A DNA stretch of 64,000 bases, taken from a virus. The stretch spans positions 6,342-70,341 of IMG/VR virus record IMGVR_UViG_3300010354_011858; one strand, given 5' to 3'. Below the pieces are notes generated by a model, which was given only the letters and a program-made list of their open reading frames with translations, ran no database searches and was not told the DNA's origin. The position numbers and the translations under genes are program-made. Below are positions 1-29,266 of this stretch, one piece after another. Position 1 is the first letter of the stretch; every line of letters starts with the position of its first letter.

Positions 1-116
1 AGAATTTCTTGGGCCATCGACAAAGCATTTGAATACATTTTTTTTCTATCATTAAATATATCGATAATACTAGATGGATTTCTATTGTTTGATAATAGAC
101 GACTATCTCTAGTCAC
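1..116 (-). CDS. hypothetical protein, runs off the window edge
   Basis: GTG at 116-114 overlaps the upstream TGA (GTGA); frame open to the edge (MTRDSRLLSNNRNPSS...). Confidence 0.45.
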   Translation of the reverse strand, partial: MTRDSRLLSNNRNPSSIIDIFNDRKKMYSNALSMAQEI

Positions 117-481
117 ATTCCCATCCCTTCAAGTGCTTGGCTTATAAGACATTCATAACAGAACGCCTTTAACCATCCAGATTTTGTTTTACGAATTTCT
201 GATTTACCACCACAACTTTCACATATATTCTTAGAAAGAGTTTCTGCTTGTGCAACATATCGCTGCATAGCTTCTTTAACTGCGCTTTGTGTTACTTCTG
301 TTGTGTAATAGTATCTAAGTGATCCAAACTTTTCTTTAATTTGAATAATTTTATAATCCGGATCGAGCATTACTAATTTTTTATGTAAGTCTATAATTAA
401 GTCATGCCAACCGTTACCTGGCAGGTAGTTGTCATGTGTCATTCTATTCTTAATATCTTCTAAGTAGTTAATGCTATTCAT
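113..481 (-). CDS. conserved phage hypothetical protein with C-terminal Zn ribbon
   Basis: GW...QIKEKFGSLRYY...CESCG...C-x2-C pattern common in phage proteins. Confidence 0.7.
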   Translation of the reverse strand: MNSINYLEDIKNRMTHDNYLPGNGWHDLIIDLHKKLVMLDPDYKIIQIKEKFGSLRYYYTTEVTQSAVKEAMQRYVAQAETLSKNICESCGGKSEIRKTKSGWLKAFCYECLISQALEGMGM

Positions 482-1241
482 TAATTATCTCCATATCAAT
501 TTTTTTTTGATTCTTTTTATATAAGCCTTTAGTTTTTATAGATTTAAATAATTTACCAAAACTTTGGTGCCATAAAACTATATAAACAGAATCATCTCCA
601 AGTAAAAATTTTAAATTTTTTTTTCTTTTAAATGGAATAATTTGTATTAATGGATCTTGAAAAGATATTTTAAAATCTTCTTTTATAAGTGGATTTATTA
701 CAATATTAATGTGGTGATAAGAATCCGTATTTATTACACCTGGCATTACTTCATATTCTTTTTTAGAATTCCAACTTACAGGAAGAATCAAACACGACCA
801 GCCTTTTGGAGTTTTTATTGTCCATGGTGTAATTAATTTAATAAAGTTTGTTTTTTCTAGGTATCTTTTTTTAGTAACTGGACATGATCCTACTTGATCA
901 TAATCAAATGTTTCAATACCAAAGTTACCCTGCTGTGTGTTTAAATCATAAAAATGATTCCATGAATCACCTTCAAGAAAGAATTCAATGTCTGCCCACA
1001 TAGGCATTGTATAGCCAAGCTTTAAATAATCCAAAACACCAGAACATGTACTTAAGGTTCCTTCGCCCCTTTTTAAATTGTTCCACCATTCTGGCAGTTT
1101 TTTGTTATTGTCAATTGGGAGTACACTGTTAGATATCATAAACATTGATTGTGGTGCAAATACTATTGAATTTTTTAATTTAAAATTTTCTACGTCCATC
1201 GGAGTGGAAGCTCTAATTATTTTTTTATTTTTAAAAAACAT
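474..1241 (-). CDS. hypothetical protein (DUF6065-like, possibly dUTPase-like fold)
   Basis: PWTIKTPKGWSCL, PGVINTD, PLIQIIPFKR motifs typical of aquatic phage accessory genes; family assignment tentative. Confidence 0.55.
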   Translation of the reverse strand: MFFKNKKIIRASTPMDVENFKLKNSIVFAPQSMFMISNSVLPIDNNKKLPEWWNNLKRGEGTLSTCSGVLDYLKLGYTMPMWADIEFFLEGDSWNHFYDLNTQQGNFGIETFDYDQVGSCPVTKKRYLEKTNFIKLITPWTIKTPKGWSCLILPVSWNSKKEYEVMPGVINTDSYHHINIVINPLIKEDFKISFQDPLIQIIPFKRKKNLKFLLGDDSVYIVLWHQSFGKLFKSIKTKGLYKKNQKKIDMEIINE

Positions 1242-1243
1242 AA

Positions 1244-1981
1244 CTATAATGATCCTCCACGATCAATATTAAATATTGCACCAGTAATATTCTTACATGG
1301 ATCACTAGCAATATATAAATACATTTCAGCAACATCTTGAACTGGGATTAATTCATCTATAAATCTAGTTAAGAGATTGAAGTCGGCATTATCAGGGAGT
1401 TTTTGTTTATCAATAAAAGGAGTTTGTACTCCACCAGGCGATACTGCATTAACTCTTATATTATTCTTTTTATACTCATATGCTAGTTCTTTTGTTAATC
1501 CAACAACGCCTGCTTTACTAGCAACATACGCAGCACTCCATGGCAAAACAGTATTATATGCTAATGAAGTCGTATTGATAATACATCCATAATTTTGATT
1601 TATCATAAATGGAAGAGTATACCTAGATGTATAAAAAGAACCATTTAAGTTAGTAGATATAATATTATCAAATTCATGTGGAGTTTGAAGATGAGTGTGC
1701 TGCATGGAATTAATTCCTGCTGTATTGATGAGTACATCAACTTTACCCATCTCTGCAACTGAGAAGCGGATTGAATCTTCTACTGCAACATAGTCCTTCA
1801 CATCGCACTTTACTGCGAATGAATTGGGTCCGGCAAGTCTTACTGTTTCTTGTGCGTTCTCAATCGTTTTGCTTAAACAAGCAACGGTCGCACCAGCATT
1901 TGCAAATTTTATAGCAACCTCACGACCAATACCTGTCCCTGATCCAGAAATAATGACAGCAGATCCAGCAAAATCACGCAT
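1244..1981 (-). CDS. short-chain dehydrogenase/reductase (FabG-like SDR)
   Basis: SGSGTGIG Rossmann motif, NTAG, catalytic YVASK, IRVNAVSPG. Confidence 0.92.
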   Translation of the reverse strand: MRDFAGSAVIISGSGTGIGREVAIKFANAGATVACLSKTIENAQETVRLAGPNSFAVKCDVKDYVAVEDSIRFSVAEMGKVDVLINTAGINSMQHTHLQTPHEFDNIISTNLNGSFYTSRYTLPFMINQNYGCIINTTSLAYNTVLPWSAAYVASKAGVVGLTKELAYEYKKNNIRVNAVSPGGVQTPFIDKQKLPDNADFNLLTRFIDELIPVQDVAEMYLYIASDPCKNITGAIFNIDRGGSL

Positions 1982-2405
1982 TAAACTTTGCTTCTCTTCT
2001 CTGCTGTTGTGGATCTATAATCTCGTATGTTCCTCTGCTAACTTTCTTAAAGAAACCTCTATTTGCATTAATATAATTATACAAAGTAGGTGTAGTAATC
2101 TCACACATTTCAATTATTTCATTAGACTTAAGTGTTTTGCCAATATTCTGTTTAATAAAAGCATCAAGTTTAGATGTCTTAGCACCACGCTTCTTTTTCT
2201 CAACAGGCCTAACTTCTGAGAAGTTGAAATAGTCCCACCATTTATTGGATAATTCGTGTGAGAGGGAATAGTATGAAGTAATTTGGCTTAGAGTTTTGCC
2301 ATCTCTAACACCAATAACAATGGAGCAGGCTGTTCTACGGTCTTCTTGGCTTATTTGTTTTGGAAGATTTTGTATTAGATTTTCTGCTTGAACCGGATTT
2401 AACAT
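1974..2405 (-). CDS. putative DNA-binding protein
   Basis: 143-aa ORF with HTH-like segments (EIIEMCEITTPTLYNYI). Confidence 0.55.
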   Translation of the reverse strand: MLNPVQAENLIQNLPKQISQEDRRTACSIVIGVRDGKTLSQITSYYSLSHELSNKWWDYFNFSEVRPVEKKKRGAKTSKLDAFIKQNIGKTLKSNEIIEMCEITTPTLYNYINANRGFFKKVSRGTYEIIDPQQQRREAKFNA

Positions 2406-2712
2406 TTAATGGTTTACCTTTCGTTTTTGTTGGTCTTCTAACCTCATCAAGGATAGCGTCTGCCTCCGTATACTTACGGAAGTTTAGCACACAGTTCTTC
2501 AAAACGGCGGATCCAGCAGAATATTTTTGCGAATCTAATTCGTATGTGCAGGCGATATAATAGTAATCATCATCTTCTGCAACTAAGTATCCAACGGCAC
2601 TTAAAATACACATTGTTTGAGGCGTTCCAATATCATACCAGTCATCATCAATACTGAAATGATCTTCCCAAAAGACCTCAACAAGGGGCGGAAGCGGCGG
2701 GTATTTATTCAT
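2335..2712 (-). CDS. conserved phage hypothetical protein
   Basis: VEVFWEDH...W...SAVGYL motif; start moved to ATG 2712, which follows a GGAGG. Confidence 0.7.
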   Translation of the reverse strand: MNKYPPLPPLVEVFWEDHFSIDDDWYDIGTPQTMCILSAVGYLVAEDDDYYYIACTYELDSQKYSAGSAVLKNCVLNFRKYTEADAILDEVRRPTKTKGKPLNVKSGSSRKSNTKSSKTNKPRRP

Positions 2713-2725
2713 TATTCCTCCAATA

Positions 2726-2789
2726 AGCAGAGCAGCCCCCACACCATAAATAAACTTTCGTAATACTTACAGCCAGGAACTGCCCTGCC
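2726..2789 (-). ncRNA. candidate structured 5' leader (long hairpin with GAAA tetraloop)
   Basis: GGCAGGGCAGTTCC/GGGGCTGCTCTGCT 14 bp plus GCTGTAAGTA/TATTTATGGT 10 bp, many G-U pairs, AC-GAAA-GT apex; begins 7 nt after TG-t-TATACT. Confidence 0.5.
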
Positions 2790-2795
2790 AAAGAT

Positions 2796-2804
2796 AGTAT
2801 AACA
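2796..2804 (-). promoter_or_regulatory. extended -10 promoter TG-t-TATACT
   Basis: match to TGnTANNNT in an intergenic region. Confidence 0.6.
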
Positions 2805-2839
2805 TCAATTCTGTATTTTCATCATATATATTTATTATA

Positions 2840-4000
2840 TTATTTAATATATTGACCGTATATTGATTCAATTAGAGAGCCAGTTAAATTTCTTTCTTCT
2901 CTATATTGAATAGAATCGATACTAATATTTTTATAGTTATCAATCATATAATTTAAGAAGCAATTTAATTGTAAAATTGCTGTCTGAAAGCCGATGCATC
3001 TATACATGCCGTGACCAAATACTAAATTTGTTTTTTTATAATTTCTATATATATTAAAATCTTTAGTGTGTTTACCAAATTTTGTTTCATCAAAATTAGC
3101 ACTGCCTAATAAAAATGCAACAATATCACCCTTCTTAATATTTTTATTATGCAGTATGTGATCCGATGATGCAACTCTAATCAGATTAGTTTGTATAAAA
3201 CTATATCTAAGTGTTTCTTGTATAAAATTATTTGATAGTTTTTTATTTTTAATGACATCAAGAAAATAATTATTATATTGATATATATTATTTAAAAAAT
3301 TTGGGAATGTACCAGTTAATGAGCTTGATCCACCAAGCATCATTCCCATACAAAATGATATTGCTACATCCCTATCTCTACAGTTTGATACAAGAGGAGG
3401 AGGATTATTAATTATAAACTTATATGCGTTTTTGCATATATCTATTCTTTCTTGAATACTTGCCCGTTTCATTAAACTACTGGTAATCTGGAAAACATCG
3501 TCGGCCATCTCGTGATCGTATCCCATGAGATCGCATATTGTTAACAGTGGTATTCGATTTGTTACTGTTTTTACTAAGTCCACGGGGCCAATATTTTCTA
3601 TATTAGAAAAGATTTTATTAATATTTAAATTAATTTTTGACTCTAAATCACCGGCTATTGCGGAATGGTAGATATCTAATAATTTTTTTCTATGAATTGT
3701 ATACTCAGGTGGCAACTGTATCTGAAAGAACTGTCTGTCCTTGTCAGATAGTAGTTCCGGATTATTTGTCATACATGTTAAATCTCTTATAACAATTGAA
3801 TCGGTGGTATCATAAGTGTATAATTCATGGTTAGCCAAGCCATTAATTACATCTTGATATCTACTAATAATCCAAGCTCTGTGATGATCGCTCCAATACA
3901 CTGGCTCATATTTTCTAAGATCAGAATAAAGATTTAATAAATCTTCCTTCGGTGTTTTGTTAGTAAAGTTAAAATTTATCATATATTTACTCTTTATCAT
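2840..4000 (-). CDS. cytochrome P450 (atypical I-helix)
   Basis: ETLR K-helix ExxR, IKKGD, SANFDE, heme motif FGHGMYRCIG; alternative start at 3982. Confidence 0.9.
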   Translation of the reverse strand: MIKSKYMINFNFTNKTPKEDLLNLYSDLRKYEPVYWSDHHRAWIISRYQDVINGLANHELYTYDTTDSIVIRDLTCMTNNPELLSDKDRQFFQIQLPPEYTIHRKKLLDIYHSAIAGDLESKINLNINKIFSNIENIGPVDLVKTVTNRIPLLTICDLMGYDHEMADDVFQITSSLMKRASIQERIDICKNAYKFIINNPPPLVSNCRDRDVAISFCMGMMLGGSSSLTGTFPNFLNNIYQYNNYFLDVIKNKKLSNNFIQETLRYSFIQTNLIRVASSDHILHNKNIKKGDIVAFLLGSANFDETKFGKHTKDFNIYRNYKKTNLVFGHGMYRCIGFQTAILQLNCFLNYMIDNYKNISIDSIQYREERNLTGSLIESIYGQYIK

Positions 4001-5126
4001 TCCCTAGAAATCTCATATGTAGACTATCCCACATCATACCTGAGAGGTCGGCTTTGTTTCTTAGGACACCGGAAATTATTTCAAAGTTTGGAGATATTTC
4101 AACAATTGATTCGAGTATAGATGTCATTTCTAATCTAGCAAGCCTCTGGCCGGGACATGTGTGTGGACCGTATCCAAAAGCAAAGTTATGCTTATTAATC
4201 TCTCTATTAATTAAAAACTCATCAGGACTATCTTTTATAAATTCTTCATCAAATCCAGCAGATGCAGTTAAAAATAACACGGTATCTCCTGCTCGTATAA
4301 ATTTATTATTTAATACATGATCAACTGTTGCTGTTCTTATAACAAATTGGGATAAATATCTATGTCTTAGTGATTCTTCTACAAAAAGAGGAATAAGTTC
4401 GTTATTATTTAATATTCTATAATATTCTTCTGGATGTTTCTTGCAGTTATAGACTAGATTTGCTAGTTCAGCAGAAATAGTTTCATAGCCGGCAATTGCA
4501 ATTGATGTACAGAGTGTGCCAATAACTTTTTTTGTCAAATTTACATTTGAAAACTCTTTTTCTGCAATTTCTATAACCAAGCCTGGTGGATTCTTATAAA
4601 AAAATCCGGCCAAGTTCATTACAGCTTCTTTTTGCTCCTCCTTTGAGGAGAGATCAAATAATTTCTTTGCTTGTTCTTTTATAAACTCTAAATGATCTTT
4701 ATCTATTCCAAATATATCAAATATTACATATATAGGAAATAACATAAATAAACTATTTATTATATCAATATCTTTATTTAAAATAGATTTTAATTCATTT
4801 GAAAAATTATTTTTTATTTTTAATTTTAATTCTTCACTAACCTGGCTTGAAATAATTCTATTAATAATTTTTCTAAATTCAGTATGGGCCGGCGGGTCTA
4901 GTTCATAGAATGGTAGATTGTCATATAGTTCAGACCTTTTTGTTTCAAGGGTAGTTCCATAATTTGCAGTATATTTACTATAGTCACGCAAACAAGATAC
5001 AACATCTGTATATTTAGATACTATCCAAATTTTATGTTCATCATTCCAATGACATCCATCTAAATGTCTTAGAAGTTTGTATTTTTTATAATTATCAAAT
5101 GTAACTTCATATGGGTCGTAAATCAT
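3987..5126 (-). CDS. cytochrome P450
   Basis: DPPAHTEFR, AGYET I-helix, EESLR, heme motif FGYGPHTCPG; ATG 5126 preferred over 5168. Confidence 0.93.
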   Translation of the reverse strand: MIYDPYEVTFDNYKKYKLLRHLDGCHWNDEHKIWIVSKYTDVVSCLRDYSKYTANYGTTLETKRSELYDNLPFYELDPPAHTEFRKIINRIISSQVSEELKLKIKNNFSNELKSILNKDIDIINSLFMLFPIYVIFDIFGIDKDHLEFIKEQAKKLFDLSSKEEQKEAVMNLAGFFYKNPPGLVIEIAEKEFSNVNLTKKVIGTLCTSIAIAGYETISAELANLVYNCKKHPEEYYRILNNNELIPLFVEESLRHRYLSQFVIRTATVDHVLNNKFIRAGDTVLFLTASAGFDEEFIKDSPDEFLINREINKHNFAFGYGPHTCPGQRLARLEMTSILESIVEISPNFEIISGVLRNKADLSGMMWDSLHMRFLGNDKE

Positions 5127-6648
5127 ACAATTCTTTAATTTTTTTATAATCAATTTTACCAATTTCATTCCTTGGTATTAAATTTGATTTAATAAATTCT
5201 TTTGGAATCTTATAGTCAGCAAGATAATTTAAACAGAATTTTTTTAAACTAGCAAAGTCTATCTCTGTATCACAATTTATAACACAAGTTACTTGCTGAC
5301 CCCATCTATCGTGGTGTTTACCTATTACAACTGCATCAGTGACTCCTGGGTACGACTTTATTACTTCTTCAACTTCCTCTGGGTAAACCTTTTCTCCGCC
5401 AGTATTAATGCAATTGTTGTCTCTTCCAAGCAGAACAAGTTCACCAGATTCTGTTATATACCCAAGATCACCAGGTATACACCATCTCTTATCGTCAATT
5501 TCTTTAAATACCATATTCGTCTTTAGCGAATCACTGTAATAGCCAATTGGTAAATGACCGGTTTTAGCAATTTTACCAATAATGTTACAATCAACCTTAT
5601 TATAATTATCGTCTACAATAATAGTATCTTCTGGAGATACAAAGGATGAGTCATTCACTTTAGCAACAACACCGCCTATTTCTGATCCGCCATATACATC
5701 CATTACCGAAATATGTGGAAGCAATTCAATTAATTTCTTTTTGTTTATTTCTGATAAAAATGCTCCACCGTTATTAATAGAAAACAAATTTTTAAGATTA
5801 TATGTATTCTTGCTTAATTCATCAATTAATGTTATTGCCATTCCGTCGCCAATTATACTCATTGAGTTTGCTTCGGATTTCTCTGCAAGGGATAAGCAGT
5901 GGTAGCCAGTAAATGTTTTATTTGTATACATGATATATGTAGCACCTAATACTAAAGCACTACCCATTACCCATTGACCAGATGCATGCATCATTGGTGT
6001 TGTACACATTATTTTTGGAATAAATTGTTTGTTTAAACATTCAAGAGACAATTCTTTTACTGAGTCAATTGGAGCATTATTTCTACCCTTATTCATAGCT
6101 GCAAGAATGAGATCTTCTTGCCTCCATACAACACCCTTTGGCATGCCAGTCGTACCACCGGTATATGTTATATATATGTCATCTCCTGATCTTTTTTCAA
6201 AGTTTCTTTGGCATCCAAATGATCTGACTGAGTTTTCATAGATCGACTCAAACTTACCAACCCATTTTAATTTTGGTAAGTTTGAATATATTGAATACAC
6301 ATCATCATAAAATTCATCAGATACTAGTGTTGCAACAACATTAGCATTGTTATATAAATATAATAATTCATTTTTAGAATATCTATAATTTATATTAATG
6401 GGTACTGCTCGTATTTTCAAGCAAGCATAAAATGCATAAATCCATTCAATTCTATTTCTTGAATGAATAGCAATATGATCACCATAGCCAAATCCACAAC
6501 TTTTTAAAAAGTTTGCAAGCCTTGTTGCTTCATTATCGATATATCCATAGGTATAAACACAATCATCGGTGATAACAGCAATTCGATCACCAAATGTATC
6601 TGCATGGGATTCTAAAATATCCGCTAAATTAATTGAACCGTCACTCAT
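5107..6648 (-). CDS. acyl-CoA synthetase, FadD19-like
   Basis: NLAD, NYRY, RSGDDIYITYTGGTTGMPKGVVWRQED, GD, LLGR..CINTGGEKVYPEEVE, YKIPK. Confidence 0.9.
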   Translation of the reverse strand: MSDGSINLADILESHADTFGDRIAVITDDCVYTYGYIDNEATRLANFLKSCGFGYGDHIAIHSRNRIEWIYAFYACLKIRAVPININYRYSKNELLYLYNNANVVATLVSDEFYDDVYSIYSNLPKLKWVGKFESIYENSVRSFGCQRNFEKRSGDDIYITYTGGTTGMPKGVVWRQEDLILAAMNKGRNNAPIDSVKELSLECLNKQFIPKIMCTTPMMHASGQWVMGSALVLGATYIMYTNKTFTGYHCLSLAEKSEANSMSIIGDGMAITLIDELSKNTYNLKNLFSINNGGAFLSEINKKKLIELLPHISVMDVYGGSEIGGVVAKVNDSSFVSPEDTIIVDDNYNKVDCNIIGKIAKTGHLPIGYYSDSLKTNMVFKEIDDKRWCIPGDLGYITESGELVLLGRDNNCINTGGEKVYPEEVEEVIKSYPGVTDAVVIGKHHDRWGQQVTCVINCDTEIDFASLKKFCLNYLADYKIPKEFIKSNLIPRNEIGKIDYKKIKELYDLRPI

Positions 6649-6689
6649 CTCCCCAGTTTACACCACTGAAGAAAAGAATGACGGTTCAA
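6633..6689 (-). promoter_or_regulatory. hairpin covering the ligase start codon, with a -10 box (TAAACT) at its apex
   Basis: TTGAACCGTCATTC/GAGTGACGGTTCAA 14-bp outer stem plus inner stem; TAAACT lies 6 nt before ATG 6648. Confidence 0.65.
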
Positions 6690-6692
6690 AAA

Positions 6693-6920
6693 CTATTTTT
6701 TGTCGTTTAAATGCCAGATGATATGCTGATCAATCTTATTATCGACAGCGCTAACATCTGAGTCAAGATCATTAACTGCGTCCTTGAGGTCTTCAAGGAC
6801 AGCCATCACAGCGTCGTGATCTTTCTTATTTTCATTTTTAAATTTTTGTATAATTGCTACTATGATTCCACCAATTGTTCCAATAAATGCAACAATTATG
6901 GATGCAACAGCAGCATCCAT
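6693..6920 (-). CDS. small membrane protein (possibly holin-like)
   Basis: one N-terminal TM helix followed by a coiled coil. Confidence 0.6.
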   Translation of the reverse strand: MDAAVASIIVAFIGTIGGIIVAIIQKFKNENKKDHDAVMAVLEDLKDAVNDLDSDVSAVDNKIDQHIIWHLNDKK

Positions 6921-7288
6921 CACTCACCAAAAATCTTATCAACGAGTTCTTCAGGCGACATTCCAAGATCACCATACTCATCAATATGATCAGTAAGAAT
7001 CTGAATCAGATCGGCTTTTTTAACAGGATCCAAAGGAACCTTTGTCGGAGCCGGTGCTGCCTTATCGGGCTGGTCAGTGGAGGAACCACGGGTTCCATAT
7101 ACCTGACCCGAGCGCTCTTCGGGATTCAACGGGACTTCCTTCATAGCTTTCCCGAGTTCCTCAGACTGCTCCGCATGCCACTCAGCTGCTAACTGATGCG
7201 ACTTAGCCATGTCTTCATGCCATGCCTTCATAGCATCATGCTTTCTTTTGACAATCTGAACGTTGTCATACGGTAACTGAATAATCAT
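6920..7288 (-). CDS. hypothetical protein
   Basis: GGAG SD upstream; 122-aa ORF within the operon. Confidence 0.7.
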   Translation of the reverse strand: MIIQLPYDNVQIVKRKHDAMKAWHEDMAKSHQLAAEWHAEQSEELGKAMKEVPLNPEERSGQVYGTRGSSTDQPDKAAPAPTKVPLDPVKKADLIQILTDHIDEYGDLGMSPEELVDKIFGE

Positions 7289-7300
7289 TTTATTATCTCC

Positions 7301-8755
7301 TTATTTACTACTTTTAGGGTGACCTTTGGGTAAAAGATCATTATCGGTTGTATAATTTGGATTTGAAGGTCTTCCATTTCTCAAAAGATACAGATATGCA
7401 TTAACTCTTGCCATGGCCCACTGTCCACGAGTCATTCCTGGACGGTGTGAGGTAGAGAAAGCGCCAGCACCACGGCGATAAACTGCTTTCAAAGCAGACA
7501 TTGTTGCTTTCTTAGAGGCTGAATCTGCTTTTTTATTATGAGCTTCCATTTTTGCCTTTAAAGAAGAAGTAACTGCTTCACCAAATGTAACAGAAGCACC
7601 CGACTGTGCGGATCCTTTTGGATTTTTTCTTGATCCTCTGCGCCTCTCAGATGGCTTTGCAGGCGTTTTTCTGGGGTCGTTAGGTCCAGGACGACCATAT
7701 GTAACCTTTTCAATGTCGGATTCTCCGCCAGATAGTAAATGCTCAGGAATAATCCACAATTTACAGATTGCATTTGGATCAATTTGACCAGAAACTATCT
7801 CGCAACCTTGACCACCCTCATAAAAAACACAATTTGAACAAACTAACCCCTCATCTTTGAACGGGTTTTTATCTGCTGGGGCATAATGAGCACCGTTTCT
7901 CCCGGTCGTTTGATCAAACTTACCAAATTTTTCGACTATTGATTCATATCCTTCATATTGAGCGATCTGCATAGGGGAAAGTTCAGGATGTTCAGACATT
8001 TCTTCCTCTTCTTCACCATCCTCCTCATCCTCTTCAGCACCCTCTTCTTCATCTTCCATCTCGTCGTCCTCAGGTTCCTCCTCAGAATCAATTAACGATA
8101 TAAGAATTAAATCTGCTAAGTCAAACTTATCTAAAAACTCACTATAAGTATCCAATTCTTCCGCCATCAGCAAATCATTTAAGAAATCATAAGATGTTTC
8201 TTCTTCATAGCCCATATCTTCGTTCTCCTCATTATCGATTGAAACCACACCGTCAGGTATAACAGCAAATCGACATTTGCCTTCCGGGTCAACTGAGGCT
8301 TCTATTATTTTACAAACTGAGCCTCCAGCATAGAGAACACAATTTGAGCACTTCACCCCGATTTCCTTTTCGTCGTTCTCCTCAGGGGTTTCGTAGCCAG
8401 CCCATATGCCGGTACCATCTTCATTAAATTTACCATACTTTTCAGCAATCGCTATTAGAGCCATAGCAAGCATGGCCTCATCTTGGGTTAAATCTTCTGC
8501 AACTTTTTTTACTTTAGGCTTTCTTTTTTTAGGATAACCTTGTTGAGGATTTTTTATGCCTGAACCCATAGATGTGGTCGTAATTTCATTTGCCCTTTGA
8601 ATATCAATATCACCAATAGCGATACCCTGCGCTAGAGCTTTTCTTTTAGCAGCAGTTTTGGATTTGTTATTTCCTGGGGCATATGTATAGCACTTGCCAG
8701 CATCACCCCATTTATATCCTGGTTTGCCATTGTCTGAGCAAGAATTTACGGGCAT
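7301..8755 (-). CDS. modular protein: two HiPIP-like 4-Cys domains, acidic linker, DUF5824-like C-terminus
   Basis: CSNCVLY..C..VDPEGKC and CSNCVFY..C..IDPNAIC; LKAVYRRGAGAFSTSHRPG..QWAMARVNAYL. Confidence 0.7.
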   Translation of the reverse strand: MPVNSCSDNGKPGYKWGDAGKCYTYAPGNNKSKTAAKRKALAQGIAIGDIDIQRANEITTTSMGSGIKNPQQGYPKKRKPKVKKVAEDLTQDEAMLAMALIAIAEKYGKFNEDGTGIWAGYETPEENDEKEIGVKCSNCVLYAGGSVCKIIEASVDPEGKCRFAVIPDGVVSIDNEENEDMGYEEETSYDFLNDLLMAEELDTYSEFLDKFDLADLILISLIDSEEEPEDDEMEDEEEGAEEDEEDGEEEEEMSEHPELSPMQIAQYEGYESIVEKFGKFDQTTGRNGAHYAPADKNPFKDEGLVCSNCVFYEGGQGCEIVSGQIDPNAICKLWIIPEHLLSGGESDIEKVTYGRPGPNDPRKTPAKPSERRRGSRKNPKGSAQSGASVTFGEAVTSSLKAKMEAHNKKADSASKKATMSALKAVYRRGAGAFSTSHRPGMTRGQWAMARVNAYLYLLRNGRPSNPNYTTDNDLLPKGHPKSSK

Positions 8756-8764
8756 AGTAAGACT

Positions 8765-8775
8765 ATTTTATCATA
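8765..8775 (-). promoter_or_regulatory. extended -10 promoter TG-a-TAAAAT (near-leaderless)
   Basis: 9 nt before ATG 8755, no SD. Confidence 0.55.
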
Positions 8776-9063
8776 CTACTGATAAATTGTATAAAGATTC
8801 TCCTGTGACCATCTTTGAACGGGAATCTTTACATCACGGAAATATTCGAAAGCCTCCTCAGATGAGTAATAAACCCTGGCATAGGCTTTTCTCGCGCCCT
8901 CATCGTAGACCGGACATTTCGGATTGGGATCTAGATACAGTGCTTTAAAATGATATTTATCTTGCTCATAATGAATAGCATTAACAACTGTTAAGATTGC
9001 ATTACAGTACGGACATATCTTCTCTGGATAAGGAAAGTCTGGAATGATCCTCCCAATAAGCAT
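8776..9063 (-). CDS. hypothetical protein
   Basis: 95-aa ORF with CPYC; stop/start overlap with its neighbour. Confidence 0.7.
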   Translation of the reverse strand: MLIGRIIPDFPYPEKICPYCNAILTVVNAIHYEQDKYHFKALYLDPNPKCPVYDEGARKAYARVYYSSEEAFEYFRDVKIPVQRWSQENLYTIYQ

Positions 9064-9320
9064 CAGTCTTCACCATAAGGATTGCCGAATGTTTTGTTGT
9101 TAATAATAAAATCAATAACTTCACTAATTCTCTCTTGGGCAATTTCTATGCCATCCATCAGGGAGTGGAGCTCATCCAGAGTAAGAATATGATTATTGTC
9201 TGGTGATACGACAACAACGGCTGGTGCAAAGCCACCCTCGAAGGGGACAGACTTTACTAGGACATATAAAGAATTTATGTCCTCTAGATCATTCTTTTCT
9301 TTATATGGAATTATTCTCAC
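9063..9320 (-). CDS. hypothetical protein
   Basis: 85-aa ORF coupled to both neighbours. Confidence 0.65.
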   Translation of the reverse strand: MRIIPYKEKNDLEDINSLYVLVKSVPFEGGFAPAVVVVSPDNNHILTLDELHSLMDGIEIAQERISEVIDFIINNKTFGNPYGED

Positions 9321-9493
9321 TTTTTACTAGTTTCCTTGAACAGCATTCCAATTAAAAGAAATGAATGCCATAAAAAAATTGGACCAATATATCCTGTATC
9401 TATATTAAATGATATATTAAATCCATATCTAAATAAAGCTGAGAATAGCATTACTATCAATACATAGGTTATGATAGCGGATGTCCTGGTCAT
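9317..9493 (-). CDS. small two-TM membrane protein
   Basis: ATG 9493 overlaps the thyX stop (ATGA); two hydrophobic segments. Confidence 0.6.
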   Translation of the reverse strand: MTRTSAIITYVLIVMLFSALFRYGFNISFNIDTGYIGPIFLWHSFLLIGMLFKETSKK

Positions 9494-10185
9494 ATAGATT
9501 CCCTTCCGGTGAGCACCCACGCCTCGTAGGTAGCCGGCAGTGTAGCAGCAAACATATCTTCAATACCGGCTGCATACTTGGCGATTTCTAACTGTGCGTG
9601 CTCATCATTTCTTAAGCATAAGAAATTCATTAAACTTCTAGCATTAACTGTCCAAATAAATTCTGTGTACTGCCCAACAGGGAGAACGGACCTGGCCAAC
9701 TCCTTGGCTACTCCCATTTCTAGCATCTCTCTATAGGCCGCTTCAGCATGTTTGTAAACAACTGCAAACTGTCTTGTAACTTCTGAGTAGGCAGCTTCTG
9801 GATATTCCATCGGCTTAAAACTGTAAGCGCCTGGCTTGCCAACTTGAGTTCTTACATCTTCTTGATCCGGGAAAAAGAAGTCAATCTTCTGAGGAACGTA
9901 ATATCTCATACTCATCTCATTGAATGACGACCACCTATGCCTAAACCACTCTCTAGCAACAAATATAGGACACTTGATATGAAATTTAAAAACAACATGT
10001 TCAAACGGCGTTGCATGCTTATTTTTAATTAAATAATTAATTAATCCCTTGGATTTATCGGTTAACTCAGAATCCTGAGAGGCGAAAGAAACTCTTGCAG
10101 CATTCACAATGCTAAGATCATCGCCAATAAAATCGATAAGGTTAATCTCACCAGCGTTTAAAACTTTTTTGTTGAATTCGGTCAT
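9490..10185 (-). CDS. thyX: FAD-dependent thymidylate synthase
   Basis: AARVS, HATPFEH, RHRWSSFNEMSMRY signature, KELARSVLP, HAQLEI. Confidence 0.97.
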   Translation of the reverse strand: MTEFNKKVLNAGEINLIDFIGDDLSIVNAARVSFASQDSELTDKSKGLINYLIKNKHATPFEHVVFKFHIKCPIFVAREWFRHRWSSFNEMSMRYYVPQKIDFFFPDQEDVRTQVGKPGAYSFKPMEYPEAAYSEVTRQFAVVYKHAEAAYREMLEMGVAKELARSVLPVGQYTEFIWTVNARSLMNFLCLRNDEHAQLEIAKYAAGIEDMFAATLPATYEAWVLTGRESI

Positions 10186-10191
10186 GCTAGT

Positions 10192-10202
10192 ACTCTAGCA
10201 CA
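10192..10202 (-). promoter_or_regulatory. extended -10 promoter TGTG-c-TAGAGT, leaderless thyX
   Basis: 6 nt before ATG 10185, no SD. Confidence 0.6.
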
Positions 10203-10211
10203 TGGACCGCC

Positions 10212-10346
10212 AAAAAATTTTTTAAAAAAAATGGTTTTCTATCAGCAAGGGCGTGAAAACGGTGATACCCTCAGTACGCCAGCACGCAAGATACTCCTAG
10301 TACTCTTTAACGTATAAGCATATAAGCATGCTATGTATGCTTATTA
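10212..10346. repeat. A/T tracts, short direct repeats and a near-perfect palindrome at the strand switch (possible origin)
   Basis: AAAAAATTTTTTAAAAAAAA; AGTACGC/AGCACGC/AGTACTC; TATAAGCA x2; ATAAGCATA..AGCATGCT..TATGCTTAT. Confidence 0.45.
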
Positions 10347-10371
10347 CAGAAAGCGTAGTATAATGAAGAAT

Positions 10372-10611
10372 ATGGAAATCATCGCTTTTGCCGAGTCCGA
10401 CGATTGCGGGCCTTTTGCCATAATGGACTCCGATCTGATTTCAATCATGAAAGTAGGGGATTTATATCTCGCTGCCACCCGTTGTGCTTTTCGTAATACA
10501 CCAATAACATGTGAAATTTCGAAAGAAGACGCAATGGTTTTATTCTCTAAAGGTGTACAATGTTTGGATATCGAAAAGGAGAATATAGGCAGCTTTTATG
10601 AAGAAAATTAG
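10372..10611 (+). CDS. hypothetical protein
   Basis: ATG 10372 lies 7 nt after TATAAT (10359-64), preferred over 10333. Confidence 0.65.
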   Translation: MEIIAFAESDDCGPFAIMDSDLISIMKVGDLYLAATRCAFRNTPITCEISKEDAMVLFSKGVQCLDIEKENIGSFYEEN

Positions 10612-25477: not shown

Positions 25478-26647
25478 ATGTCATTAGCTGTAAGACTTGA
25501 TAGCCATAATAGAGTTGTACAATGTATTGAAATACCCGATGACCAAGATGGTGACGCATCAAATTTTATTAATTTTACTCTTAACTTGAAGGGCACATGG
25601 CTATCTGTATCTAGTTGTCATATAGAACACAATCAAAATATATCTGTTGGGTTCACATATCTCCCAGATAAAAATAAGTTTATAACTCAACAACCATTTG
25701 ATGACTGGATTCTTGATGAAAATAATTGCTGGATACCGCCAATTAAAAATAATCTTAGAAATATGAGTTATGGTTATGAAAACGAGATCTCCGATGGACC
25801 GTCATTTTTTTGGAATCAAGAAAAAAAGATGTGGGGACATTCGGGGGTTGAATATAATATTTTAAATCAAAATAATAAAGATAATGGAGTATATTTTATA
25901 TCTAAAGCAATACAGGTTACTAATCAAGAGTACGCTTCAGATTTTGTGAAAGAACTAAATGTGCAATGCAATGGTCGTGCATATAAGTATGTTGATGTAC
26001 ATCCCGACTGGGATCAGAACTTCATCTACCCAGTATTTAGAGAAACATTTGCTACTAAATATGGAGTAGTTGACTCAAATCCAGATAGATTTCATTGTTA
26101 TGAAAATTATATAATGCCATTTGATGGTGCCCCCTATTTTTTCATTCATTATTCTAACTTGTGTGATTTGACTAAAAAAAGAAATGTTAAAATTAAACAC
26201 GAAGCTGTGCAAGATCATCTTTATGAAATTTCAGTAGATTTTGAAAGAGAATTCATCTGCCAGCATCCATATATTGCTGCAAGAACTCTGAGTGAGCTTT
26301 TCAAGTTAATAATGGATTGGGACATTTGTTATCATATATTTAATAATAGAGAAAACACAGCTATTTTATGTCATAACATTATGTCAGGAATTCAGATGCC
26401 AAATGATATATGTGATCTTATATACCATTCTACGCCTCCATCAATTATAGAAAAATATTTAAGAGGAGATCCTGATTATCTTAATATTGGCGAAAGACCC
26501 ATTGAAGATGAAAGAGTAATGAGATGGTTTGCAGAGAAGTATTGGGATCTTAGATATTTAAAGTATCATGAAACAGTTAATATTATAGAATTAAATGAGG
26601 ATCACTATATTCCTTTTTCTCTTATGAATAATAATGCTTCTTTGTGA
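25478..26647 (+). CDS. hypothetical protein, paralog family member 2
   Basis: N-terminal QPFDDWILDENNCWIPP fibre-associated motif plus the shared C-terminal domain. Confidence 0.75.
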   Translation: MSLAVRLDSHNRVVQCIEIPDDQDGDASNFINFTLNLKGTWLSVSSCHIEHNQNISVGFTYLPDKNKFITQQPFDDWILDENNCWIPPIKNNLRNMSYGYENEISDGPSFFWNQEKKMWGHSGVEYNILNQNNKDNGVYFISKAIQVTNQEYASDFVKELNVQCNGRAYKYVDVHPDWDQNFIYPVFRETFATKYGVVDSNPDRFHCYENYIMPFDGAPYFFIHYSNLCDLTKKRNVKIKHEAVQDHLYEISVDFEREFICQHPYIAARTLSELFKLIMDWDICYHIFNNRENTAILCHNIMSGIQMPNDICDLIYHSTPPSIIEKYLRGDPDYLNIGERPIEDERVMRWFAEKYWDLRYLKYHETVNIIELNEDHYIPFSLMNNNASL

Positions 26648-28047
26648 GAAATAAAACTTTCTGTGCTCTCATAAATTGAATATGAATTAATTATTCGATT
26701 AGCATAATCTTGATATTGTATAGGTATTTTATTGTACTCATTTCGAATACTCTCGGTATTAAACATATCAAGGCCAGACATTATTTGTATAAAATTCCAG
26801 TCCCAAAATAAGCAATAATCACTGTTTTGATTGAAATCATCATGCCTTGGTAATCGATGGACCCAAACTTTTAACATTTCCTCTAAGTCATTTGGTAATT
26901 TAATAGATGCACTATCTATCCAAAATTTTGTGTTTTGTTTTTTAGTTAAATAATGAACTATTAAAAAATCTCGTATATTGGAGATTATATTTGAATAAAT
27001 TTTATTATAAGAATTTTGGTTCCATTTATCTGTTAATAGATTATTTGCTAAAATAAAACACTGTTGAATAGTGGAACTGATTGCAGTAGCCTCTAAAGGC
27101 TCTACAAAACTAGCACTAAGACCCACAGCACAGCAGTTATTAATCCAAACTTTATCTAATGTTCCTGGTGTAAATGTAAACTCTTTGCCAAAAGTTATTT
27201 TCCTTTTCAAATATTTTTGAATTTCTTCTTTAGCTATATCATGTGATATGTAATTCTTGTCAAAAATATAGCCATTACCATATCTACCCCATACTGGGGT
27301 TTTGAACATCCATCCGTAATCCATAGCGGTCGATAAAGTTGAGATATTATAGGTCTCTTCTTCTTCTGTTTGAAAAACAACAGCTGCATTTACCTTAAGA
27401 AAGTCCTCAAATGAAACATACTTTGCTCCCAGTTTCGAAATTAATTTTCTAGAAAATCCAGTGCAATCTATATAAAAATCGTATTTATATTCTTTTTTTT
27501 CACCTAAAATAGAGTTTATATATCCATTTGAATTTAATTTAATATCTAATATTAGATCTTCATATAGTATGATATTATTTTTAATAGCAATTTTTTTTAA
27601 AAAATCAATAAATTTAAATGTATTAAAATTATATTGATTGAAAATTATTTCTTCATTTTTTAATTTAGAATATGGAATAAGATTCTGTTTAGTCCATTTT
27701 GGATTAATATAATTTGAATCATATGAAATTTGTCTTCCATATATATAATTATATTGTCCAAGAGTATAAGTAAAAGGATCACATACATAATTAATGTAAT
27801 CTTTATTAGACCAATTTTTAAATTTAATTGATGATTTAAAAGTGGCATCGCACTCGTTTATCATATCTTCTTGGCTTATTTCTGCACACTTCATAAATTC
27901 AAAAAAATGCTCAGTTGCAGCTTCGCCAACACCAATTGTCTGTACTTGATTTGAATATACTAGGTCAACAGAATGACTAGTCATTTTTTTAATAATTATG
28001 GAGGCTACTAGTCCAGCAGTGCCTCCTCCTACTACTAATATTTTCAT
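26605..28047 (-). CDS. flavin-dependent (tryptophan) halogenase family protein
   Basis: VVGGGTAG, IGVGEA, ATFKSSIKF.NW (catalytic Lys position), IDCTGF, GWMFKTP, FVEPLEAT. Confidence 0.9.
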   Translation of the reverse strand: MKILVVGGGTAGLVASIIIKKMTSHSVDLVYSNQVQTIGVGEAATEHFFEFMKCAEISQEDMINECDATFKSSIKFKNWSNKDYINYVCDPFTYTLGQYNYIYGRQISYDSNYINPKWTKQNLIPYSKLKNEEIIFNQYNFNTFKFIDFLKKIAIKNNIILYEDLILDIKLNSNGYINSILGEKKEYKYDFYIDCTGFSRKLISKLGAKYVSFEDFLKVNAAVVFQTEEEETYNISTLSTAMDYGWMFKTPVWGRYGNGYIFDKNYISHDIAKEEIQKYLKRKITFGKEFTFTPGTLDKVWINNCCAVGLSASFVEPLEATAISSTIQQCFILANNLLTDKWNQNSYNKIYSNIISNIRDFLIVHYLTKKQNTKFWIDSASIKLPNDLEEMLKVWVHRLPRHDDFNQNSDYCLFWDWNFIQIMSGLDMFNTESIRNEYNKIPIQYQDYANRIINSYSIYESTESFISHKEALLFIREKGI

Positions 28048-28646
28048 GATGTATAAATAATATATTTTTTATCTTTTTTATTTTTCTGGGGGAATCCGAT
28101 GAACTCTCTTTCATCATATTTTAAATTTGAAAATTTACCATATTTATTGACATAGTGTAGAAATACTTGAATGTGGTATTCATTATCTAAACAGTTTAGA
28201 GTATTTCTCCAATGAGATAGTTCGCATCCCTTGTACACAGCCATATCACCGCTACATAGATATATCGGTTCCCCGTCAATGAAAAGTTCCCAGGGGTCAC
28301 CAGGGTAATTATAATCTAGAGCCAAAGTCGCAGAGATCTCACAAGATTCTCGGTCCAAGTGTCTTCTGAGATATTGCCCATTGCGGTATATCCTATAATA
28401 TGAATATGTAGGATATAATTCTAATCCAGTATGTTGTTCAATAACAGGCTGCATTTTTAATAATAATGACTCCATCAGGGGATCAGCGTAAGATGAATGC
28501 GCATCAGCTACCTGGGGGTCTCCCGGTGAAAAATTAGATAATTCATCAAAAATGGCATATTGACTAACTAACTGTACAAAATCTTTATCTAGAGCTGATT
28601 TTATAATCGTATATTTATTTTTTTCAAAGTTGTTTATTGTATCCAT
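28044..28646 (-). CDS. 2OG-Fe(II) oxygenase
   Basis: PTYSYYRIY, HLD.ESCEISAT, HWR, QVFLHYV. Confidence 0.85.
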   Translation of the reverse strand: MDTINNFEKNKYTIIKSALDKDFVQLVSQYAIFDELSNFSPGDPQVADAHSSYADPLMESLLLKMQPVIEQHTGLELYPTYSYYRIYRNGQYLRRHLDRESCEISATLALDYNYPGDPWELFIDGEPIYLCSGDMAVYKGCELSHWRNTLNCLDNEYHIQVFLHYVNKYGKFSNLKYDEREFIGFPQKNKKDKKYIIYTS

Positions 28647-29266
28647 CTATCTTTTATCCAAGTTACTATTGCATATTTTGTACCACTTACAACAGGATGC
28701 GCAATATGTCTATAAGCGTAATTAGATGGGAAAAGAAGCAACATTCCTGGCTCTGGTTTAATTTTTATACCAAAATTAACAAATTCAATTTCCCCGCCGA
28801 TATAATCATTATTTAAATATACTATTGCTGAAATTGATCTTCCATCCGATGTTGAGCCGTCATAGTGAGCGTCATATTTTTGACCGGATGAATACTTCAA
28901 AACATTGTAATATTCATGCATAAATTCGCCGTAAATGGAATACTTCTCGGTGTATGGAGTAAGTGCTGCAGTTAATAAAAAATACATTTGATTATGTAAA
29001 TTTTTTGCCAACTGATTGCCGTATATATCACCACATGTTGTTAAACATAGATCATAATTTGTTCTTACACTTTGATATTGACCATCGCCAAATGTAGATG
29101 CTTTTGACCATTTTAAATCAGATTCTATATTAGAGCACTCAAGTTCAAGAGCTTCAATTGTTTCTGCCGGATTTGGCCAAGCATTTTCAAATATATCTAT
29201 ACAACCAGCAACAGTTGTATCAGGTATTAATCTTCCTTGGAAGATGCCCATTGTAAATTTATTCAT
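28634..29266 (-). CDS. prolyl 4-hydroxylase-like 2OG-Fe(II) oxygenase
   Basis: LKY..GQ.Y..HYD, YLNNDY.GGE, FPSNY.Y.H..PV.SG.KYAIVTW. Confidence 0.88.
   Translation of the reverse strand: MNKFTMGIFQGRLIPDTTVAGCIDIFENAWPNPAETIEALELECSNIESDLKWSKASTFGDGQYQSVRTNYDLCLTTCGDIYGNQLAKNLHNQMYFLLTAALTPYTEKYSIYGEFMHEYYNVLKYSSGQKYDAHYDGSTSDGRSISAIVYLNNDYIGGEIEFVNFGIKIKPEPGMLLLFPSNYAYRHIAHPVVSGTKYAIVTWIKDRWIQ

Follow-up and report, generated by a model that had tools for sequence, protein, structure and literature searches.

In mycobacteria, the side chain of cholesterol is oxidized by the cytochromes P450 (P450s) CYP125 and CYP142 and is then activated by the ligase FadD19. For fadD19, a role in sterol side-chain degradation is described in the accessible text of PMC6273163. 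The accessible text of PMC9405906 lists viral P450s for giant viruses, for Ranid herpesvirus 3 and for the mycobacteriophage Adler alone and states that no viral redox partner is known. A set of genes that recalls both systems is located in a 64,000-nucleotide stretch of viral DNA (hereafter the window), which comprises bases 6342-70341 of the 70,341-b IMG/VR record IMGVR_UViG_3300010354_011858. An earlier reading of the DNA letters alone (the original prediction) had proposed that this cassette of one acyl-CoA ligase and two P450s encodes an oxidise-then-activate pathway for sterol or lipid side chains, and had called viral P450s rare; for phages the latter holds, a single mycobacteriophage being reported in the accessible text of the same source (PMC9405906). 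The cassette consists of the following genes:

5107-6648, minus strand: ANL-superfamily acyl-CoA synthetase (the ligase), 513 amino acids (aa), of the PRK07798/FadD19-containing family
3987-5168, minus strand: P450-A, 393 aa from the first ATG, a canonical class-I-like P450 (PF00067, 1.9e-21)
2840-4000, minus strand: P450-B, 386 aa, a paralogue of P450-A with the non-canonical I-helix GGSSS (PF00067, 5.3e-12)

The three genes are intact, embedded in phage DNA, syntenic in independent contigs, optional and under purifying selection. They may constitute a host-dependent oxidation module with optional coenzyme A (CoA) activation of a hydrophobic substrate, a reading that we consider plausible, if a little short of probable.

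The layout of the cassette agrees with the original prediction in that the three open reading frames (ORFs) overlap, lie on the same strand, are open and intact, and have kept their motifs. Counted from the first ATGs, the overlaps amount to 62 nt between ligase and P450-A and 14 nt between P450-A and P450-B. The real starts may lie slightly downstream, at M15 of P450-A (5126) and M7 of P450-B, as indicated by homologues and by P0195, a library representative whose alignment begins at residue 7 of the query. The cassette is AT-rich and sits among phage genes, with a GC content of 0.24-0.36 in 500-b windows and 0.31-0.32 in 2-kb bins, compared to 0.34-0.47 for most of the window and 0.28 for one other bin. 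The claim that the cassette has its own promoter did not hold: the 48 sigma-70-like sites found in positions 1-10400 match the 47.9 expected from shuffles, and the upstream region of the ligase contains one 10/12 promoter match (6766-6738). Terminator-like sites are equally at chance level (5 versus 5.0 expected).

The record has a CheckV completeness of about 55%. In the vicinity of the island are genes for ThyX, a glycosyltransferase, ribonucleotide reductase, portal, maturation protease and major capsid protein. Since the major capsid protein and the portal display 45-51% identity to large Streptomyces phages of about 130 kb, e.g. Jay2Jay, the lineage is actinophage-like. It probably resembles siphoviruses and is a relative of Streptomyces phages. 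The host is probably a low-GC aquatic actinobacterium. The stretch was found in 20 runs from 16 studies, with aquatic, freshwater or riverine labels in all but one; the exception is a wastewater run holding a small share of the stretch. No tRNAs were detected in the 64-kb window.

The same gene order (ThyX ... p151, ligase, P450-A, P450-B, p124, p143, short-chain dehydrogenase/reductase (SDR), DUF6065-like) is found in L006, an 11.6-kb metagenome contig. Identities between the two loci are 60% for the ligase, 77% for P450-A, 59% for P450-B, 89% for p124, 81% for p143, 64% for the SDR and 59% for the DUF6065-like protein. A second locus, in the IMG/VR contig L005/L087/L090, shares its flanks and the SDR with the window and is devoid of the ligase. 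Here, three tandem P450s (L005:9956-13325) fill the slot of ligase, P450-A and P450-B, namely A' (34% identical to P450-A), B' (46% identical to P450-B) and P450-D (381 aa). A related phage, represented by the near-identical IMG/VR contigs L091 and L092 (portal 89%, ribonucleotide reductase 85%), has neither ligase nor P450s nor SDR, and a 67-aa homologue of the upstream flank is joined directly to homologues of p135 and p143. Three further related loci (L088, L089 and L093) end short of the island.

Contigs from two other DNA runs of different studies (X2 and X3) span the borders between ligase and P450-A (4877-5294) and between P450-A and P450-B (3465-4737), which speaks against chimeric junctions inside the cassette. 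A joint 663>5122 in run X2 was rejected as an artefact, as its shorter side of 21 letters is under the bar of 30. The recurrence of the island between the same flanks, in combination with its absence from a related phage, identifies it as an accessory island and not as an assembly chimera. It has phage genes on both sides, its junctions are the same in assemblies independent of each other, and close relatives are without it; it is an optional accessory (moron or auxiliary-metabolic) island of a phage. That the cassette is phage-borne agrees with the original prediction. The search for syntenic cassettes in IMG/VR, which that prediction had suggested, yielded the L005-type locus and the island-less L091/L092, L006 being from a metagenome. 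Specifically, a scan of IMG/VR with an alignment of P450-A retrieved one locus, L005, and a scan with the single ligase sequence retrieved none. Among GenBank phages, the cassette had no match by megablast, P450-A and P450-C (a third P450 of the record, described below) had none by tblastn against 50,697 phage records, and the ligase had tblastn matches of at most 27% identity, mostly in unannotated records or in genes annotated as fadD or non-ribosomal peptide synthetase (NRPS).

Comparison of the window with L006 (NG86) gave ratios of nonsynonymous to synonymous substitution (dN/dS) of 0.21 for the ligase, 0.12 for P450-A, 0.20 for P450-B, 0.19 for the SDR, 0.22 for the DUF6065-like gene and 0.05-0.06 for four flanking genes, all of them rough, upper-side values because dS is saturated (0.9-2.4; the flank gene p95 has no dS). 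A ratio near 1 would have spoken against a functional cassette, and the 0.12-0.21 of ligase and P450s instead points to purifying selection. The dN of the island genes is 0.14-0.31, compared to 0.05-0.11 for the flanks. Thus, the island genes are constrained, yet evolve several-fold faster than the core genes.

Both P450s carry the heme cysteine and the ExxR motif, in agreement with the original prediction, and the cysteine as well as Glu and Arg of ExxR are invariant in all eight aligned phage P450s. P450-A contains EESLR, FGYGPHTCPG and the I-helix AGYET; P450-B contains ETLR and FGHGMYRCIG. The acid/alcohol pair of the I-helix is present in P450-A and in P450-C (GSIDTT), whereas the I-helix of P450-B reads GGSSS or GGSNS in all three phages and is missing the acid residue. 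The corresponding segments in L005 are SGAKT in A' and KETQS in P450-D.

The nearest kin of P450-A is P450-B, and vice versa. For P450-A, five relatives with 36-78% identity were found, all of them unnamed or generic metagenome proteins, while the next listed matches do not exceed 31%. For P450-B, a search of 1.84 billion representatives returned just 8 at E<=1e-30, comprising its own cluster, six unnamed clusters (26-39%) and the representative of the P450-A cluster (31%); the remaining listed matches are at 1.3e-22 or weaker. In an IQ-TREE phylogeny of 40 sequences, all A, B and D types group with their metagenomic kin in a single clade (about ten clusters; SH-like approximate likelihood ratio test (SH-aLRT) 100), apart from the other 21 sequences, a grouping that may be inflated by the deviant composition flagged in this tree. 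The 'cell_' labels of the tree are for convenience, as few rows carry organism names, and P0214, labelled cellular, falls inside the phage-type clade.

The predicted structure of P450-A (AlphaFold2; predicted local distance difference test 87.4, predicted template modelling score 0.89) was compared with known structures using Foldseek. Matches with a template modelling (TM) score of about 0.8 include CYP109B4 with testosterone, CYP125MRCA with sitosterol (24-26% identity), CYP109E1, P450sky, CYP153A, CYP199A, BioI and CYP106, and a sequence search of the PDB agrees with the fold search. That steroid, fatty-acid and alkane hydroxylases are among the fold neighbours supports a hydrophobic substrate.

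The ligase combines AMP-binding (2.5e-43) and AMP-binding_C domains. In accordance with the ANL superfamily, it possesses the N- and C-domains, the P-loop, the A5 Glu, the A7 Asp, the A8 Arg and the A10 Lys; an alignment of 15 sequences shows no variation in the P-loop TGGTTGxPKG or in E323, D394, R409 and K498. Its best NCBIfam model is NF005863 (PRK07798), with 506 bits over positions 4-530 of 540, narrowly missing the curated cut-off of 543, and the next family scores 240 bits. The model of the steroid-24-oyl-CoA synthetase CasG reaches 181 of 750 bits. Three relatives on short metagenome contigs display 60-64% identity; the other listed relatives are 39-45% identical and the named ones are mostly Actinomycetota (actinobacterial members 40-45%). 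Two of the 120 listed relatives are labelled 3-oxocholest-4-en-26-oate-CoA ligase by JGI. Among species-representative genomes, 581 relatives were found, the top match (41%) being from an Acidimicrobiales bin; the best 80 of these belong to Acidimicrobiia, Streptomyces, Nocardia, Mycobacterium, Rhodococcus and Nocardioides, with a few Gammaproteobacteria, Myxococcota and one Cryomorphaceae bin.

In a FastTree phylogeny of 200 sequences, the four phage-type ligases, flagged as compositionally deviant, form one clade (100) on a long branch. This clade lies inside a clade of 118 rows, where the support for its sister is weak (65) and no specific cellular origin is resolved. The references of the tree include no named FadD19, and the 14 control genomes are without a mycobacterium. 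Three mycolata genomes contain 4-6 ligase paralogues each, with 32-38% identity, so that membership of PRK07798 does not imply FadD19 function. For the FadD19-like character claimed by the original prediction, the best-matching family and the actinobacterial relatives speak in favour, and the missed cut-off and the long branch without a resolved cellular sister speak against. In the same three genomes, 5 of 15 loci have a P450 within 1.5 kb on either side of a ligase paralogue, and a Mycobacterium region (L189) contains a ligase, a P450, a CaiB-type CoA-transferase and an Ltp-type thiolase, followed further on by an acyl-CoA dehydrogenase and a second ligase. Hence, the placement of a P450 beside this ligase family recurs in lipid-catabolic settings. 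The identification of L189 as a cholesterol cluster was tried and could not be established.

As the original prediction had noted, the P450s come without a ferredoxin or reductase, which holds for the 70-kb record only, with about 45% of the genome unseen. No redox partner was found in this record, where the Pfam families Fer4_15, Fer2 and Flavodoxin_1 are without a match, and a search of the whole record for WhiB- and ferredoxin-like motifs gave two antisense-looking ORFs, which were discounted. A sub-threshold match to Pyr_redox_2 (12.9 bits) at the N-terminus of a halogenase-like gene was likewise rejected. Encoded at 7301-8755 on the minus strand is a 484-aa protein with an internal duplication, two HiPIP-like Cys motifs, an acidic linker and a C-terminal DUF5824, which gave a weak match to Pfam HIPIP. 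Every related phage carries it, even the one without the island, and it is thus no dedicated partner of the P450s.

According to the reading favoured here, the P450s would take electrons from a ferredoxin and reductase of the host during infection and would oxidise a hydrophobic host-derived substrate, for instance a chain of alkyl, isoprenoid or otherwise lipid-like nature. In phages with the ligase, a resulting carboxylate could be adenylated and thioesterified to CoA, and the CoA ester might then feed host beta-oxidation or acyl transfer. Sterols are not indicated as the substrate.

A number of findings weigh against this reading. The sister phage L005 retains the P450 pair and the SDR without the ligase, so that the sequence of oxidation and activation is not obligatory, and the third P450 in its ligase slot implies that the P450 pair, not the combination of P450 and ligase, represents the conserved core. 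Of the original pathway proposal there remain phage-borne P450s accompanied by a ligase and kept under selection; the obligatory coupling does not. P450-B, for want of the canonical I-helix pair, may not be an ordinary hydroxylase. The fold matches of P450-A do not discriminate between substrates, all top ones having E-values of about 1e-19, and the ligase misses the cut-off of its family. Just 13 of 80 loci at which cells encode a member of the ligase family include a P450 in the 10 kb on either side, though some flanks are short, and identities between the phage P450s and cellular P450s adjacent to ligases do not exceed 30%. The saturation of dS limits the selection estimates. Finally, contigs from RNA libraries cover 680-856, 1793-2477 and 6667-7375 and, at low depth, 4859-5899 in the ligase region; these may contain DNA, so that they are no proof of transcription of the island, and uncovered stretches are no sign of silence.

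The island and its surroundings contain the following further features:

6693-6923, minus strand: upstream flank, a 76-aa membrane/coiled-coil phage protein (phrog_32850, 1e-11)
2727-2788, minus strand: conserved long hairpin (about 60 nt, GAAA loop) at the downstream border of the island, followed by p135
2335-2742, minus strand: downstream flank, a phage protein of 124/135 aa (p124/p135), likely start ATG 2712
1244-1981, minus strand: classical SDR, 245 aa, FabG/3-hydroxybutyrate-dehydrogenase-like (adh_short 3.6e-49, phrog_3142)
4215-5309 of L004/G000, minus strand, about 1 kb left of window base 1: P450-C, 364 aa, with canonical motifs and a GC content of 41-46%

Homologues of the 76-aa protein precede the island in L005/L087 and are located directly before the p135 homologue in L091/L092. 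The downstream protein p124/p135 is 89% identical in L006 and L005 and 49% identical in the island-less L091; its Shine-Dalgarno sequence and ATG are visible in the alignments. Directly upstream of these elements, the hairpin is predicted to comprise 25 pairs, 6 of which display compensatory changes (RNAalifold, four phages including the island-less L091). It belongs to no Rfam family, the Rfam search of 1-10400 having given a single chance miRNA match (E 0.58).

The SDR lies two genes downstream of the cassette, where the original prediction had placed it. Its best NCBIfam matches are all under their cut-offs, and it is found in all three island-bearing contigs and missing from L091/L092. In the same three contigs it is accompanied by a 255-aa gene (474-1241, minus strand), initially considered 'dUTPase-like', which resembles virus-dominated DUF6065 clusters in the ESM Atlas; as a common phage DUF6065-type protein it was rejected as a member of the pathway. 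Between SDR and p135, the 143-aa protein p143 (1974-2405, minus strand) is 81% conserved across phages. It has no match in Pfam or PHROGs, its C-terminus appears helix-turn-helix-like by eye, and it is possibly a regulator.

P450-C has two near relatives with 99% and 81% identity and is 41-47% identical to a large family of P450s with 400-455 aa, some of which are named Actinomycetota, Ilumatobacter or Ilumatobacteraceae; with 364 aa it is shorter than these relatives. The match to Actinomycetota and Ilumatobacter P450s suggests that the host is an aquatic actinobacterium and that P450-C is more host-like in origin than P450-A and P450-B. Between P450-C and the SDR region, an AhpD/CMD-family 'peroxidase-related' protein of 173 aa is encoded (L004:5936-6457, minus strand, overlapping window 1-116), which is not found at that position in L005, L006 or L091. 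A second AT-rich island (GC 0.28) lies at window positions 26605-29266 (minus strand) on the opposite strand within the structural region and encodes a FAD halogenase-like protein of 480 aa (phrog 'tryptophan halogenase', 4.8e-92), a 200-aa protein without assignment and a 2OG-Fe(II) dioxygenase-like protein of 210 aa. Overall, the record is compositionally mosaic, with a GC content from 24% to 64%. At its left end (L004:1-3000, G000), GC climbs to 0.50-0.64, compared to 0.24-0.36 in the P450 island a few kb away. The same rise after the dCMP deaminase is seen in L091, where a weak homologue is common to both records, so that the high-GC left end looks like mosaicism of the lineage and not like a chimera.

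Besides the module proposed above, it is possible, though less than likely, that the P450s serve small-molecule editing in conflicts of the phage with its host or with competitors, by inactivating, altering or producing a molecule that is either diffusible or bound to the envelope. Conceivable targets are chemical defences against phages, signals or receptor lipids, and the ligase would be one of several exchangeable tailoring partners. Such a role would agree with the conservation of the P450 pair as the core, next to a third slot taken by either the ligase or P450-D, and with the presence/absence polymorphism of the island. It would also agree with the elevated dN of the island genes and with the additional oxidoreductase morons of the same record (P450-C and the AhpD-like, FAD halogenase-like and 2OG-Fe dioxygenase-like proteins). 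Moreover, A, B and D belong to one clade with metagenomic relatives only, which points to duplication and divergence within the lineage, although the common AT-rich composition may inflate this clade. On the other hand, the scanned part of the window's ORFs yielded no core biosynthetic enzyme (NRPS, polyketide synthase, cyclodipeptide synthase (CDPS) or terpene synthase), no target molecule is known for freshwater actinobacteria, and with dN/dS far under 1, nothing at the level of whole genes indicates positive selection. Our tentative formulation, in which we place limited confidence, is that a phage-restricted P450 clade was duplicated and diversified into A, B and D within a lineage of freshwater actinophages, the present record having the host-like P450-C in addition, and that the exchangeable oxidative island edits small molecules of host or competitor, or envelope lipids, in the course of infection. 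If true, a bacteriophage would here be seen for the first time to possess an enzyme system with several P450s, possibly one for chemical counter-defence.

A module specific for sterol or steroid side chains, in which CYP125/CYP142-like 26-oxidation precedes FadD19-like CoA activation, is improbable. Since CYP families are delimited by more than 40% identity and the best identity of P450-A and P450-B to any cellular P450 is 31%, neither belongs to CYP125 or CYP142, and the sterol side-chain oxidation proposed in the original prediction was not borne out. Other genes of a steroid or beta-oxidation pathway are likewise missing from the 70-kb record (echA19, cyp142, fadE and ltp: none among the ORFs scanned around the island). 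CYP125MRCA with sitosterol and the steroid-binding CYP109 and CYP106 are indeed among the top fold matches, but P450s acting on alkanes, benzoate and peptides score equally. Steroid degraders occur in Actinomycetota, some marine Gammaproteobacteria and Myxococcota, and the taxa of the ligase family resemble this distribution; in addition, two listed relatives of the ligase carry the cholestenoate-CoA ligase label mentioned above. Against this stand the long separate branch of the phage ligases with a sister support of 65, the several paralogues per mycolata genome, which deprive family membership of its value as proof of FadD19, and the dispensability of the ligase in L005. With the family resemblance of the ligase as its sole positive support, the sterol-specific reading is unsupported.

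Tandem P450s with atypical I-helices occur in pathways for peptides made by ribosomes and modified after translation (RiPPs). Cross-linking of a small phage- or host-encoded peptide by RiPP-type P450s, with an unrelated ligase, is nevertheless very improbable here. The best NCBIfam match of both P450s is a CDPS-associated subfamily and P450sky is among the fold matches of P450-A, but the match reaches about 110 bits versus a cut-off of 500 and is generic, given that an ordinary Mycobacterium P450 has the same top match. No CDPS or precursor gene was seen, and the sole intergenic stretch inspected, that after P450-B, holds the hairpin and not a short ORF.

An assembly chimera or decaying, functionless hitch-hiker DNA, which the AT-richness of the island relative to the rest of the mosaic record might suggest, is largely refuted and scarcely credible in view of the same junctions in L006 and L005, the X2 and X3 contigs across the gene borders, the intact frames with motifs kept at 34-77% identity, the low dN/dS and the recurrence of the high-GC left end in L091.

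The locus reveals an uncultured freshwater phage lineage with two to three P450 genes per contig and supplies a defined set of expressible enzymes with which to study the oxidative reactions required by a phage in an aquatic actinobacterium. It extends the range of auxiliary genes past those for photosynthesis and for the metabolism of nucleotides and sulfur, and the new CYP families (364-393 aa) may serve as small biocatalysts.

Compared with known moron or auxiliary metabolic gene (AMG) islands of phages, the island is similarly AT-rich, optional, inserted between conserved core genes and oriented in the same direction as its neighbours; unlike these, it carries a ligase and multiple P450s, a cargo not found in the openly searchable literature. 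In particular, no such cassette is described in the searchable full-text literature on phage P450s and AMGs, subscription papers and supplements being outside this scope. With CYP109, CYP106, CYP153, CYP199 and BioI, the model of P450-A superposes at TM scores of about 0.75-0.82 and shares a canonical ExxR, heme loop and I-helix, whereas the identities of 18-26% allow neither family nor substrate to be transferred. The ligase shares with FadD19 and other PRK07798 members the ANL fold motifs, a full-length match to the model and 40-45% identity to actinobacterial proteins. It differs from them in its score (506 versus 543 bits), in its separate branch with three metagenomic relatives and in the lack of echA19 or steroid neighbours. 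The adjacency of P450 and ligase family is the same as for CYP125/CYP142 and FadD19, and is also seen in 5 of 15 mycolata loci; in the phage, however, the P450s are not CYP125 or CYP142 (identity of 31% or less), a P450 can take the place of the ligase and a downstream beta-oxidation set is missing. Like the viral P450s covered by the accessible text of PMC9405906, those of the present phage are virus-encoded without a redox partner of their own, implying that they are driven by ferredoxin and reductase of the host. Unlike those, three P450s are present in one phage record and three in tandem in the sister contig, two of the three in the record derive from a clade without named cellular proteins, and they are coupled to a ligase and an SDR.

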